Below are positions 3 to 62,700 of a DNA stretch of 64,000 nucleotides, in pieces. The stretch lies in assembly GCF_003790525.1 (NCBI RefSeq), contig NZ_CP033635.1. One strand, 5' to 3'. A program made the translations under genes and the position numbers. Each line of letters starts with the position of its first letter. Position 1 is the stretch's first letter. The DNA is from Escherichia coli. Lineage in GTDB: Bacteria > Pseudomonadota > Gammaproteobacteria > Enterobacterales > Enterobacteriaceae. The notes beneath the pieces were generated by a model. It did not search any database and had not been told where the DNA came from. It saw only the letters and a program-made list of their open reading frames with translations.

Positions 3-395
3 CTGAAATTGCCGCTGTTTGACGGTGGACGGTTGAATGCCAATCTCGAAGGCACGCGCGCCGCCAGCAACATGATGATTGAACGTTACAACCAGTCAGT
101 ACTGAACGCGGTGCGCGACGTTGCCGTCAACGGCACGCGTCTGCAAACGCTTAACGACGAGCGAGAGATGCAGGCTGAACGCGTGGAAGCAACGCGCTTC
201 ACCCAGCGCGCTGCCGAGGCCGCCTATCAACGCGGCTTAACCAGCCGCTTACAGGCCACCGAAGCCCGGTTGCCAGTGCTTGCCGAGGAGATGTCATTAC
301 TGATGCTGGACAGCCGCCGGGTGATCCAAAGCATTCAGTTGATGAAATCGCTGGGCGGCGGGTATCAGGCGGCTCCCGTCGTCGAGAAAAAATAA
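3..395 (+). CDS. mdtP: Outer-membrane efflux factor (TolC-like), C-terminal fragment; 5' end lies outside the window
   Basis: ORF 9..395 translation ends in a typical OMF C-terminus and sits directly upstream of fdhF as in E. coli; reading frame is open to the window edge. Confidence 0.75.
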   Translation: MKLPLFDGGRLNANLEGTRAASNMMIERYNQSVLNAVRDVAVNGTRLQTLNDEREMQAERVEATRFTQRAAEAAYQRGLTSRLQATEARLPVLAEEMSLLMLDSRRVIQSIQLMKSLGGGYQAAPVVEKK

Positions 396-525
396 AATGT
401 CTACCGCGTGATGGCTGTCACGCGGTATTTCGTTTCGTCACGTCAAAACTGACGACAGCCTGTTTTTCGTCAGAGTTTTGAATAAATAGTGCCCGTAATA
501 TCAGGGAATGACCCCAAATAAAATG

Positions 526-541
526 TGGCATAAAAGATGCA
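526..541 (+). promoter_or_regulatory. sigma54 (-24/-12) promoter of fdhF
   Basis: TGGCATaaaagATGCA matches the GG-N10-GC sigma54 consensus about 50 bp upstream of the fdhF ATG; direct repeats containing CGTC/GACG at about 421..473 resemble the FhlA upstream activating site. Confidence 0.6.
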
Positions 542-592
542 TACTGTAGTCGAGAGCGCGTATGCGTGATTTGATTAACTGGAGCGAGACCG

Positions 593-2740
593 ATGAAAAA
601 AGTCGTCACGGTTTGCCCCTATTGCGCATCAGGTTGCAAAATCAACCTGGTCGTCGATAACGGCAAAATCGTCCGGGCGGAGGCAGCGCAGGGGAAAACC
701 AACCAGGGTACCCTGTGTCTGAAGGGTTATTATGGCTGGGACTTCATTAACGATACCCAGATCCTGACCCCGCGCCTGAAAACCCCCATGATCCGTCGCC
801 AGCGTGGCGGCAAACTCGAACCTGTTTCCTGGGATGAGGCACTGAATTACGTTGCCGAGCGCCTGAGCGCCATCAAAGAGAAGTACGGTCCGGATGCCAT
901 CCAGACGACCGGCTCCTCGCGTGGTACGGGTAACGAAACCAACTATGTAATGCAAAAATTTGCGCGCGCCGTTATTGGTACCAATAACGTTGACTGCTGC
1001 GCTCGTGTCTGACACGGCCCATCGGTTGCAGGTCTGCACCAATCGGTCGGTAATGGCGCAATGAGCAATGCTATTAACGAAATTGATAATACCGATTTAG
1101 TGTTCGTTTTCGGGTATAACCCGGCGGATTCCCACCCAATCGTGGCGAACCACGTAATTAACGCTAAACGTAACGGGGCGAAAATTATCGTCTGCGATCC
1201 GCGCAAAATTGAAACTGCGCGCATTGCTGACATGCACATTGCATTGAAAAACGGCTCGAACATCGCGCTGTTGAATGCGATGGGCCATGTCATTATTGAA
1301 GAAAATCTGTACGACAAAGCGTTCGTCGCTTCCCGTACAGAAGGCTTTGAAGAGTATCGTAAAATCGTTGAAGGCTACACGCCGGAGTCGGTTGAAGATA
1401 TCACCGGCGTCAGCGCCAGTGAGATTCGTCAGGCGGCACGGATGTATGCCCAGGCGAAAAGCGCCGCCATCCTGTGGGGCATGGGTGTAACCCAGTTCTA
1501 CCAGGGCGTGGAAACCGTGCGTTCTCTGACCAGCCTCGCGATGCTGACCGGTAACCTCGGTAAGCCACATGCGGGTGTAAACCCGGTTCGTGGTCAGAAC
1601 AACGTACAGGGTGCCTGCGATATGGGCGCGCTGCCGGATACGTATCCGGGATACCAGTACGTGAAAGATCCGGCTAACCGCGAGAAATTCGCCAAAGCCT
1701 GGGGCGTGGAAAGCCTGCCTGCTCATACCGGTTATCGCATCAGCGAGCTGCCGCACCGCGCAGCGCATGGTGAAGTGCGTGCCGCGTACATTATGGGCGA
1801 AGATCCGCTACAAACTGACGCGGAGCTGTCGGCAGTACGTAAAGCCTTTGAAGATCTGGAACTGGTCATCGTTCAGGACATCTTTATGACCAAAACCGCG
1901 TCGGCGGCGGATGTCATTTTACCGTCAACGTCATGGGGCGAGCATGAAGGCGTGTTTACTGCGGCTGACCGTGGCTTCCAGCGTTTCTTTAAAGCAGTTG
2001 AACCGAAATGGGATTTGAAAACGGACTGGCAAATCATCAGTGAAATCGCCACCCGTATGGGTTATCCGATGCACTACAACAACACCCAGGAGATCTGGGA
2101 TGAGTTGCGTCATCTGTGCCCGGATTTCTACGGTGCGACTTACGAGAAAATGGGCGAACTGGGCTTCATTCAGTGGCCTTGTCGCGATACTTCAGATGCC
2201 GATCAGGGGACTTCTTATCTGTTTAAAGAGAAGTTTGATACTCCGAACGGTCTGGCGCAGTTCTTCACCTGCGACTGGGTAGCGCCAATCGACAAACTCA
2301 CCGACGAGTATCCGATGGTACTGTCAACGGTGCGTGAAGTCGGTCACTACTCTTGCCGTTCGATGACCGGTAACTGTGCGGCACTGGCGGCGCTGGCTGA
2401 TGAACCTGGCTACGCACAAATCAATACCGAAGACGCCAAACGTCTGGGGATTGAAGATGAGGCATTGGTTTGGGTGCACTCGCGTAAAGGCAAAATTATC
2501 ACCCGTGCGCAGGTCAGCGATCGTCCGAACAAAGGGGCGATTTACATGACCTACCAGTGGTGGATTGGTGCCTGTAACGAGCTGGTTACCGAAAACTTAA
2601 GCCCGATTACGAAAACGCCGGAATACAAATACTGCGCCGTGCGCGTCGAGCCGATCGCCGATCAGCGCGCCGCCGAGCAGTATGTGATTGACGAGTACAA
2701 CAAGTTGAAAACTCGCCTGCGCGAAGCGGCACTGGCGTAA
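593..2740 (+). CDS. fdhF: Formate dehydrogenase H (selenoprotein, Mo-bisMGD); in-frame UGA at 1010..1012 read as selenocysteine
   Basis: ORFs 593..1012 and 1061..2740 are in the same frame and separated only by TGA; N-terminal CxxC..C Fe-S motif and molybdopterin oxidoreductase-like sequence; combined length 715 aa. Confidence 0.93.
1013..1057 (+). promoter_or_regulatory. Bacterial SECIS stem-loop directing Sec insertion at the fdhF UGA
   Basis: Immediately 3' of the UGA: CACGGCCCATCGGTTGCAGGTCTGCACCAATCGGTCGG can fold into a hairpin with a GGUC apical loop, as in the known fdhF SECIS. Confidence 0.8.
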
Positions 2741-2752
2741 TACAGTCCTTTC

Positions 2753-2783
2753 TACAGCCTCCTTTCGGAGGCTGTTTTTTTAT
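2753..2783 (+). terminator. Rho-independent terminator after fdhF
   Basis: ACAGCCTCCtttcGGAGGCTGT stem followed by a T7 run. Confidence 0.8.
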
Positions 2784-2833
2784 CCATTCGAACTCTTTAT
2801 ACTGGTTACTCCCTACCCAATCGTATTATCAAA

Positions 2834-3523
2834 ATGAAAAAAATTATCGCATTGATGTTGTTTTTGACATTCTTTGCCCACGCGAACGACTCCGAGCCTG
2901 GCAGCCAGTATTTAAAGGCAGCAGAGGCTGGGGACCGACGCGCACAATATTTTCTTGCCGACAGCTGGTTTAGCTCCGGCGATTTGAGCAAAGCCGAATA
3001 TTGGGCACAGAAAGCCGCCGACAGCGGTGATGCTGATGCCTGCGCGCTGTTAGCGCAGATCAAAATCACCAATCCGGTCAGTCTGGACTATCCACAAGCA
3101 AAAGTTCTTGCAGAGAAAGCGGCGCAAGCGGGCAGTAAAGAAGGTGAAGTAACGCTGGCGCATATTCTGGTAAATACGCAAGCGGGTAAACCGGATTATC
3201 CAAAGGCGATTTCGCTGTTAGAAAACGCCTCGGAAGATCTGGAGAACGACTCTGCCGTCGATGCCCAAATGCTGCTTGGTTTGATTTACGCCAACGGCGT
3301 GGGCATTAAGGCCGACGATGACAAGGCAACCTGGTATTTCAAACGCAGCTCTGCGATTTCCCGAACCGGTTATTCCGAGTACTGGGCGGGAATGATGTTC
3401 TTAAACGGTGAAGAAGGTTTTATCGAGAAGAACAAACAGAAGGCGCTGCACTGGTTGAATCTGAGCTGTATGGAAGGGTTTGATACCGGGTGTGAAGAGT
3501 TTGAAAAATTAACTAACGGTTAA
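2834..3523 (+). CDS. yjcO: Sel1/TPR-like repeat periplasmic protein
   Basis: 229 aa ORF with signal peptide and repeated Sel1-like A-x-A-Q/YxLA motifs; position between fdhF and gltP. Confidence 0.85.
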   Translation: MKKIIALMLFLTFFAHANDSEPGSQYLKAAEAGDRRAQYFLADSWFSSGDLSKAEYWAQKAADSGDADACALLAQIKITNPVSLDYPQAKVLAEKAAQAGSKEGEVTLAHILVNTQAGKPDYPKAISLLENASEDLENDSAVDAQMLLGLIYANGVGIKADDDKATWYFKRSSAISRTGYSEYWAGMMFLNGEEGFIEKNKQKALHWLNLSCMEGFDTGCEEFEKLTNG

Positions 3524-3675
3524 TGTAGGCCTGATAAGACGCGTTAATCGTCGCATCAGGCGTTGATGTCGGATGCGGCGTAAACGCCTTATCCGACCTA
3601 CAAAATCACGCTAAATCAGGCTATTGCGCTGTCTGACGTAGGCCTGATAAGACGCGGCAAGCGTCGCATCAGGCA
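3524..3675. repeat. REP/BIME cluster (palindromic units)
   Basis: Repeated GTAGGCCTGATAAGACGCG...CGCATCAGGC and GCCGGATGCGGCGTAAACGCCTTATCCG units in inverted orientation. Confidence 0.85.
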
Positions 3676-3714
3676 TCCACACATTGCCGGGTGGATATCC
3701 CCGGCAATCTTCAA

Positions 3715-6391: not shown

Positions 6392-8020
6392 TCAACAATC
6401 CTCCCCCCAGATCCAGCGCACACCGCTTTGTACATACAAACGAAAAGCGTAACGATCCGGCCCAGTTTTCTCCCCCATGACCGCATACCAGTCATGGATG
6501 CCGTTCCAGCGAATTGACGGTTCCATCATTTGCTGACGGCGTGCTTCATAAAAACGCCGCTCCGGCGTCAGTTCACCAATACGTTGCTGATGGTCAAACA
6601 GTGCCACTATCGCTTTTTCGCTGGTGTAATTGCCTCTGGCTTGCAGATCGAGACGCTCAAAACGGAAGGCGTATCCTGCCAGCGTCACCTGCTGACCCGG
6701 CTGTAAATTCAGGCTGATCTCCTGACGGCTGACGCTGGAGACCACGATCCCTGCGGCAAATAACAGCACGCCCGCATGCGCCAGCAGCGCCGGAAGCTGC
6801 ACGCGTTTGCCAGAGACAAACGTCGCCAGCACAATCACCACCAGCATCAACAGACCAAACGGTAACGTCGCACGGTTAAAATACGGCGCGCCAACGGAGA
6901 GGCGTCCCCAGCCCAGCAGGCCGTAAATCATCGGATAAAGCGTTCCCACCAGCACGATCAGTAGCACTGCGCAAAACAGCAACAGCGTAGCGAGGATTAA
7001 CATTTCCCGCGATAACCCCGAAAAACGCACCGCCGGGCCACCGTCCCGCGCTCGCCAGCCATACAGAGTCAGAGACGCAAGGCTAATCAGTGCAAACAGG
7101 CTGAACAACGGCACGGCGCGAACGTTATCCAGCGCGAACGCATGAACCGAAACCAGAATGCCAGAACGGACAATTAAGGTGCCCAGCAGCGACAGCATCA
7201 GAGTAACTATCGCCAGTAACAGCGACCAGTGGCGGAAAATCCCCCGCTGGCGTGTCAGGGACAAACTGTGCAGCAGCGCAGTGGCAGAAAGCCAGGGTAA
7301 TAAAGAGGCGTTTTCCACCGGATCCCAGAACCACCAGCCGCCCCAGCCCAGTTCGCAATAGGCCCACCAGGAACCGAGGATGATCCCCGCCGTTAATGCC
7401 CCCCAGCCTGGTAGTGCCCAGCGCCAGCAAATTCGGGCGCAGGTACCATCAAACTCGCCGCGCAGTAAACTCGCCAGCGCCACGCTCGCCGCCACCATCA
7501 AACCGCCGTAGCCGAGATAAAGCAGCGGTGGATGAAAGATAAGACCGGGATGTTGCAGCATCGGATTGAGATCGCGGCCTTCGATTGCTGGCGGAAATAT
7601 CCGCACGAAGGGATCGGACCACAGCACTACAAACAGTAGCAGTGCGGCGAGCATGAGAGATAAAACGGCTAGCGTCAGCGGAAATAGCGGATCGGTTTGC
7701 TGCCGATAATGCCAGGCAAACAGCGCGCTCCAGGCGGAAAGCAGCAGCACCCAAAGCAGCAGCGAACCTTCATGACCGCCCCACACCGCCGCCAGTTTGA
7801 GTTCCCACGACAGCAGGCTGTAGCTATGTTGGGCGACATAAATGACCGAGAAATCGCTGATGAGAAAACAATACGTCAGTACGCCAAAGGCGAGCAGCAG
7901 GAGCGCGAACTGCGCCAGAATGCCGATGCAAGTGAGTCGCATCATGGCAGGCCAGCGCAACCGCACTCCCGCAAAGGCCGTCAACGGGGTCAACACGTTG
8001 ACCCCGAGACTTAACAACAA
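6392..8020 (-). CDS. nrfE: CcmF-like heme lyase (cytochrome c nitrite reductase maturation)
   Basis: Large polytopic protein with WGGWWFWDPVEN heme-handling motif; longest ORF starts with TTG at 8020, in-frame ATG at 7945 is an alternative start. Confidence 0.85.
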   Translation of the reverse strand: MLLSLGVNVLTPLTAFAGVRLRWPAMMRLTCIGILAQFALLLLAFGVLTYCFLISDFSVIYVAQHSYSLLSWELKLAAVWGGHEGSLLLWVLLLSAWSALFAWHYRQQTDPLFPLTLAVLSLMLAALLLFVVLWSDPFVRIFPPAIEGRDLNPMLQHPGLIFHPPLLYLGYGGLMVAASVALASLLRGEFDGTCARICWRWALPGWGALTAGIILGSWWAYCELGWGGWWFWDPVENASLLPWLSATALLHSLSLTRQRGIFRHWSLLLAIVTLMLSLLGTLIVRSGILVSVHAFALDNVRAVPLFSLFALISLASLTLYGWRARDGGPAVRFSGLSREMLILATLLLFCAVLLIVLVGTLYPMIYGLLGWGRLSVGAPYFNRATLPFGLLMLVVIVLATFVSGKRVQLPALLAHAGVLLFAAGIVVSSVSRQEISLNLQPGQQVTLAGYAFRFERLDLQARGNYTSEKAIVALFDHQQRIGELTPERRFYEARRQQMMEPSIRWNGIHDWYAVMGEKTGPDRYAFRLYVQSGVRWIWGEDC

Positions 8021-14103: not shown

Positions 14104-14222
14104 TTGCCGGATGCGATCCGGGCAACAAGTCGGAAACGATTTGTAGGCCTGATAAGACGCGACAGCGTCGCATCAGGCATTGATTGCCGGATGCGGCATA
14201 TAACGCCTTATCCAGCCTACAT
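14104..14222. repeat. REP/BIME cluster
   Basis: GCCGGATGCG... and GTAGGCCTGATAAGACGCG...CGCATCAGGC units between acs and yjcH. Confidence 0.85.
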
Positions 14223-19911: not shown

Positions 19912-20052
19912 ATCAACACCAACCGGAACCTCCACCACGTGCTCGAATGAGGTGTGTTGACGTCGGGGGAAACCCTCCTGTGTACCAGCGGGATAGAGAG
20001 AAAGACAAAGACCGGAAAACAAACTAAAGCGCCCTTGTGGCGCTTTAGTTTT
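19912..20052 (+). ncRNA. sraL: Small RNA SraL (RyjA), convergent with and overlapping the 3' end of soxR
   Basis: Intergenic ghxP-soxR region ending in hairpin AAAGCGCCCttgtGGCGCTTT plus T-run on the + strand; sequence matches my recollection of SraL; 5' end approximate. Confidence 0.5.
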
Positions 20053-35193: not shown

Positions 35194-35210
35194 TTACAAG
35201 AATCATGCCA
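35194..35210 (-). promoter_or_regulatory. sigma54 promoter of pspG
   Basis: Minus-strand TGGCATgattcTTGTAA (GG-N10-G[TC]) about 35 bp upstream of the pspG start. Confidence 0.55.
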
Positions 35211-60258: not shown

Positions 60259-60568
60259 AACAATTTCCCTTCATTGAATGAATGGAGATTTACCCAAAAA
60301 CATTTCGGGCGGGATCGAGTATACACAACTAAAGCATGCGAATTACGGCGCGGGTAATTAGTGATGGGGTTTTAGGATAATTGGAATGAATATCAAATAT
60401 AAGCTTCAGATTATATATAAATAACACTAAAAATCATAAGCTTAAAATAAAAATAAAAGTAATTAATCTGCGTATTTTCCGAAATCAATCACGATTAAAA
60501 ATCTATTTTAGGATTAACCTCACGGTATGATTTCCGTTAAATCACAGACAAGGGGATTTATCTGATAA

Positions 60569-60600
60569 AAAATGCCGACATAACGTCGGCATTTTTATTA
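60569..60600. terminator. Bidirectional terminator downstream of pgi
   Basis: AAAAAATGCCGACataaCGTCGGCATTTTTATT. Confidence 0.8.
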
Positions 60601-60611
60601 GGGTTATTTAA

Positions 60612-62261: not shown

Positions 62262-62504
62262 TAGCAATACTCTTCTGATTTTGAGAATTGTGACTTTGGA
62301 AGATTGTAGCGCCAGTCACAGAAAAATGTGATGGTTTTAGTGCCGTTAGCGTAATGTTGAGTGTAAACCCTTAGCGCAGTGAAGCATTTATTAGCTGAAC
62401 TACTGACCGCCAGGAGTGGATGAAAAATCCGCATGACCCCATCGTTGACAACCGCCCCGCTCACCCTTTATTTATAAATGTACTACCTGCGCTAGCGCAG
62501 GCCA

Positions 62505-62700
62505 GAAGAGGCGCGTTGCCCAAGTAACGGTGTTGGAGGAGCCAGTCCTGTGATAACACCTGAGGGGGTGCATCGCCGAGGTGATTGAACGGCTGGCCAC
62601 GTTCATCATCGGCTACAGGGGCTGAATCCCCTGGGTTGTCACCAGAAGCGTTCGCAGTCGGGCGTTTCGCAAGTGGTGGAGCACTTCTGGGTGAAAATAG
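62505..62700 (+). ncRNA. Lysine riboswitch (L-box) in the lysC leader
   Basis: Long structured 5' leader (about 320 nt) upstream of lysC containing AGAGGCGC...TTGCC...GGAGGAGCCAG L-box-like core; aptamer boundaries approximate. Confidence 0.65.

Follow-up and report, generated by a model that had tools for sequence, protein, structure and literature searches.

The fdhF gene and its surroundings

The window, by which we mean the whole 64,000-nucleotide stretch of Escherichia coli DNA that was analysed, carries the coding sequence of fdhF at 593..2740 on the plus strand. The product of this gene, formate dehydrogenase H (FDH-H), contains molybdenum and selenocysteine and is the catalytic subunit of the formate hydrogenlyase complex. 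A program-made ORF list breaks the region into two ORFs in the same frame of the plus strand, one at 593..1012 (139 aa) and one at 1061..2740 (559 aa). Translated as a whole, 593..2740 comprises 716 codons, namely 715 amino-acid codons and the terminal stop (TAA, 2738..2740). The sole internal stop is the TGA at 1010..1012, which is codon 140, and no other disruption of the frame was found in 593..2740. The ATG at 1061, where the second ORF begins, is Met157 of the continuous frame. The initial annotation had described these two same-frame ORFs, parted by the TGA, as a single gene of 715 codons. All of its coordinates proved exact when compared with the ORF list and the translation, and its view of one gene agrees with both the continuous frame and the protein alignment described below.

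With X written for codon 140, the predicted product is identical to chain A of PDB entry 1AA6 ('formate dehydrogenase H') at 715 of 715 positions, and the two align as a single stretch from residue 1 to 715. The 1AA6 chain also has X, that is selenocysteine, at residue 140, so that the in-frame UGA is aligned with X140. Further PDB entries exist for the same protein (1FDI, 1FDO, 2IV2 and 7Z0T), and at the protein level there is no difference from FDH-H of E. coli K-12 (fdhF, b4079), the Sec position included. The NCBIfam equivalog model for the alpha subunit, TIGR01591 (Fdh-alpha), matches residues 6-685 with 1089 bits (cut-off 666.25). An N-terminal motif of four cysteines (C8, C11, C15 and C42), identical to that of 1AA6, is present in the translation, and we take these residues to be the ligands of a [4Fe-4S] cluster. 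Sec140 is the ligand of the molybdenum, and its catalytic role is established.

The distant formate dehydrogenases that we compared were likewise each aligned as one stretch across the TGA junction. Homology across this junction, on which the initial annotation had made its one-gene reading depend, is thus present both in 1AA6 and in remote relatives. In a search with residues 99-244, the column of residue 140 was occupied by X in 9T1S_L, an F420-dependent enzyme, and by C in 7QV7_S, 9WXB_B and 7BKB_D. The expectation that relatives of FdhF would have U or C at this place was therefore borne out, and the next residue is His in every one of these homologues, as it is in the fdhF product (U140-H141). 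The stretch ARV-X-HGPS of the latter is aligned with ARL-X-H, ARL-C-H, ARV-C-H and ARI-C-H of the solved homologues. FdhF of the HDCR (7QV7), the F420-dependent formate dehydrogenase (9T1S), FdsA (6TG9) and FdnG (1KQF) belong to the same fold family as FDH-H and have the Mo/W-ligand position, followed by His, in common with it. They differ in their partner subunits and electron acceptors, and several of them have a Cys encoded by a sense codon at the ligand position, so that neither a UGA nor a SECIS is needed.

From 400 to 2800, the window has 100% identity with E. coli SMS-3-5 and with several other strains. In the RefSeq annotation of SMS-3-5, fdhF is a single CDS without any flag, located in window coordinates at exactly 593..2740. 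Upstream of it lies mdtP, and downstream follow yjcO, gltP and the nrf operon; the order mdtP-fdhF-yjcO-gltP-nrf is as annotated in E. coli. Among the matches listed, 14EC007 as well as SMS-3-5 included, RefSeq has a single fdhF CDS. The prediction that naive pipelines would mis-annotate the gene therefore has to be divided: it holds for a bare ORF caller, which splits fdhF, but not for RefSeq, whose current annotation is already correct. This is also the practical point of the case. Just after fdhF, yjcO (2834..3523, plus strand) carries the annotation 'Sel1 family TPR-like repeat protein'. The name Sel1 is, to our knowledge, unrelated to selenium, and yjcO should not be taken for a selenoprotein-linked neighbour.

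Of 5426 complete E. coli genomes, 5419 have a match to fdhF (window 400..2800), in each case under a feature that bears the name fdhF, and the other seven have none. When the matches were compared over 2.4 kb, 2025 records were at least 99% identical to the window and 3395 were 95–99% identical. At the DNA level, the copy in the window is one allele among the fdhF genes of E. coli. We also noticed that four of the fdhF matches in the genome collection lie on records classed as plasmids and that one genome has two copies.

Upstream of fdhF, a sigma-54 (-24/-12) promoter motif, GTGGCATAAAAGATGCA, is located at 525..541 on the plus strand. It was picked up by a pattern search at 526..541 and does not differ from the sigma-54 motif that a ChIP-seq table (PMC4591121) gives for K-12 fdhF (b4079). 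A search of the whole window with the consensus TGGCAC-N5-TTGCA, allowing up to two mismatches, returned 16 matches, compared with 27 expected by chance. Since such a search has no statistical power, the promoter call rests on the exact match to the motif from the ChIP-seq table. One further pattern match fell inside the SECIS (1015..1030) and was rejected as a chance match. No sigma-70-like promoter was found in 380..2850. Direct reading of the sequence revealed repeats of the TCGTCA/TGACGA type at 433..476, about 60–110 nt upstream of the sigma-54 motif, which form a candidate FhlA upstream activating region. These repeats are likely FhlA activating sites. A Shine-Dalgarno-like GGAG was read at 581..584 (plus strand), 8 nt before the ATG. 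At the other end of the gene, a G+C-rich stem of 9 bp (2754..2775) followed by TTTTTTT constitutes an intrinsic terminator of fdhF (2754..2782, plus strand). Between mdtP and fdhF, at 402..427, there is a perfect hairpin of 10-11 bp, bordered on either side by T runs. Both strands score as a terminator here, and the hairpin probably terminates mdtP.

The SECIS element

Directly at the UGA, the Rfam model SECIS_2 (RF01988; bacterial, fdhF type) matches 1005..1059 on the plus strand over its full length (model positions 1-55 of 55), with 87.1 bits (gathering score 70) and E = 1.7e-18. All consensus pairs of the model are formed and no difference from it was observed. The predicted RNA fold of 1005..1059 (-19.7 kcal/mol) is paired in the same way as the Rfam consensus. 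Most of the sequences behind the model are presumably enterobacterial fdhF, and for this reason the score has to be read as a near identity match and not as independent evidence.

Counted from the U of the UGA, the element of roughly 40 nt covers 1010..1050 on the plus strand. The part that is bound by SelB is the upper stem-loop. For the fdhF SECIS, the determinants described (PMC8659212) comprise an upper stem-loop of 17 nt (nt 15-31) located 11 nt from the UGA, a bulged U17, and G23/U24 in the loop. All of these are found at the expected positions in the window. By position count, the minimal upper stem-loop, GGUUGCAGGUCUGCACC, lies at 1024..1040 (plus strand) and is 17 nt long, the spacer between it and the UGA is 11 nt (nt 4-14), nt 17 is U, and nt 23 and 24 are G (1032) and U (1033), respectively. 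The bulged U may be either nt 17 or nt 18 (window 1026 or 1027), as the two structures are equal at -4.2 kcal/mol. A GGUC four-base loop is found at 1031..1034, corresponding to nt 22-25. The fold and the RF01988 match thus agree with the initial annotation, which had placed a SECIS directly after the TGA with a GGUC loop about 20 nt from the UGA.

The region 1010..1060 does fold into a stem-loop (-14.9 kcal/mol). In stability, this hairpin does not surpass dinucleotide-preserving shuffles of the same sequence, which had a mean of -15.17 (z = 0.10) and folded at least as well in 103 of 200 cases. Stability does not discriminate here because shuffled sequence of such G+C-rich composition folds equally well, and stability beyond that given by composition is not a defining feature of the bacterial SECIS family. 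Consequently, the evidence for the element lies in the specific motif and in the identity of the protein, not in the folding energy. Of the stable hairpin that had been expected 3' of the UGA, the hairpin itself is there, but it does not exceed shuffled sequence in stability.

Decoding of the UGA codon

We regard it as virtually certain that 593..2740 is the E. coli fdhF gene and that its UGA140 is decoded as selenocysteine with the help of a SECIS directly 3' of it. This is an already known property of a well-known E. coli gene and involves no new biology. Both the recoding of UGA to selenocysteine in bacteria and the SECIS were elucidated with fdhF as the model gene. The detection of its UGA is of value as a correctness check, showing that recoding signals can be recognised from raw sequence.

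The proposed course of events would begin with transcription of fdhF from the sigma-54 promoter at 525..541. As the ribosome arrives at UGA140 (1010..1012), the mRNA directly 3' of the codon would form the SECIS hairpin, and the upper stem-loop at 1024..1040, with its bulged U and G23/U24, would bind SelB carrying Sec-tRNA(Sec). Sec would then be inserted at UGA140 in place of termination by RF2, and translation would run on to the TAA at 2738. It is established that SelB with Sec-tRNA(Sec) on the upper stem-loop delivers Sec at UGA140 and that the efficiency of recoding is partial. The dependence of fdhF on SelA, SelB, SelC and SelD, which the initial annotation had also invoked, is likewise established knowledge, not something derived from the window. 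A segment of fdhF comprising codons 130-179, and thus UGA140 and the SECIS, gave 30–40% recoding in vivo in a SECIS- and selenium-dependent manner (PMC4513850). No tRNA gene was found in the 64-kb window, and none of selA, selB, selC and selD is annotated in the equivalent region of SMS-3-5. Since tRNA-Sec occurs species-wide (5424 of 5426 complete E. coli genomes), we infer that the source strain has the Sec machinery.

The nucleotide sequence around the UGA shows little variation. A segment of 111 nt centred on the UGA and the SECIS (975..1085) is at least 99% identical to the window in 5419 of 5420 records; over this length, an identity below 99% means more than one difference. Two control segments of fdhF, also of 111 nt, reach 99% identity in only 4382 and 174 records. 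The recoding region is therefore markedly less variable than the two controls, which themselves vary widely. Such low variability is what overlapping constraints on protein and RNA would predict. The most divergent copy of 975..1085 is that of strain 14EC007, with three changes at window positions 1006, 1054 and 1072. Each of them affects a third codon position, is synonymous and falls outside nt 1-41 of the SECIS. At 1006, a U-G pair in the outer Rfam helix has become C-G. We consider it very unlikely that some constraint in addition to SelB binding and the active-site peptide underlies the unusually strong conservation of nucleotides in 975..1085. A candidate for such a constraint might be the extended lower helix (1005-1009/1055-1059), with a possible effect on the efficiency of recoding or on pausing of the ribosome. 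The U-G to C-G change in 14EC007 is a single event and is compatible with the lower helix being maintained.

A different explanation of the interrupted frame would be that fdhF is a pseudogene with a nonsense mutation at codon 140. The break that a bare ORF caller makes at the TGA fits this idea, but a nonsense mutation should be specific to a strain and have neutral flanks. Instead, the TGA and the sequence around it hardly vary at all across 5419 of 5426 complete E. coli genomes, and the near-uniformity of the 111-nt segment among the records leaves no sign of neutral flanks. Moreover, the stop falls exactly where the family has its catalytic Sec or Cys, a full SECIS comes after it, and the frame has no further disruptions. 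RefSeq does not flag fdhF as a pseudogene, whereas nrfE of strain 300709 is flagged as frameshifted. Taken together, we judge inactivation of fdhF to be exceedingly improbable. That the region might contain two genes, one for an N-terminal Fe-S protein of 139 aa (593..1012) and one for a protein of 559 aa starting with the ATG at 1061, is practically inconceivable. Both ORFs do appear in the ORF list, but the intervening 48 nt keep the frame and code for residues 141-156, which are aligned one by one with the crystal structure and with distant homologues. In addition, the homologues are single polypeptides across the junction, and neither a ribosome-binding site nor a promoter was noted ahead of 1061.

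It is also highly improbable that the UGA of an intact fdhF is read for the most part by a standard tRNA that is near-cognate (Trp or Cys) and not by Sec-tRNA(Sec). Against such a mode of reading stands the crystallised protein, which has Sec at residue 140 (X in 1AA6). For K-12, Sec as the dominant species at residue 140 has already been reported. The title of Liu et al. (1999) does speak of a selenium-independent activity of part of the fdhF SECIS, which would favour some read-through by standard tRNAs, but efficient recoding needs both selenium and the SECIS (PMC4513850).

A homopolymer difference in nrfE and other elements of the window

Over the first 50 kb, the window is 99.998% identical to SMS-3-5, with a single gap of 1 nt. 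This sole difference lies at 6403..6408, where the plus strand has a run of six C residues (a G run in nrfE, which is on the minus strand) and SMS-3-5 has seven. As a result of the C6 run, the reading frame changes close to the 3' end of nrfE, and the ORF ends at 6392 and not at about 6339, without overlapping nrfF. The 66-nt segment of the window with this run has a match of at least 99% in only 77 of 5321 records. Most other E. coli differ from the window in this segment, and those sampled align over 67 nt, which is consistent with C7. Strain 300709 has the same C6 allele, and its nrfE is annotated as a frameshifted pseudogene. Either a genuine slip in the homopolymer or an error in sequencing could account for the C6 run.

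Several further elements were identified in the window. Rfam naRNA4 (CssrE) matches occur at 3528..3598, 3641..3706, 14146..14217 and 48622..48692, some of them on both strands. They are palindromic intergenic repeats of the REP/BIME type, which occur between yjcO and gltP as well as at other sites. At 35195..35210 on the minus strand, the sequence TGGCATGATTCTTGTA matches the sigma-54 motif of pspG in the K-12 ChIP-seq table (PMC4591121), and pspG is annotated in the corresponding region of SMS-3-5. Three plus-strand RNAs gave Rfam matches at gathering level: the sRNA sraL at 19912..20052 (153 bits), STnc430 at 60455..60603 (84.5 bits) and a lysine riboswitch at 62498..62694 (99.5 bits), which is the one annotated upstream of lysC in SMS-3-5.
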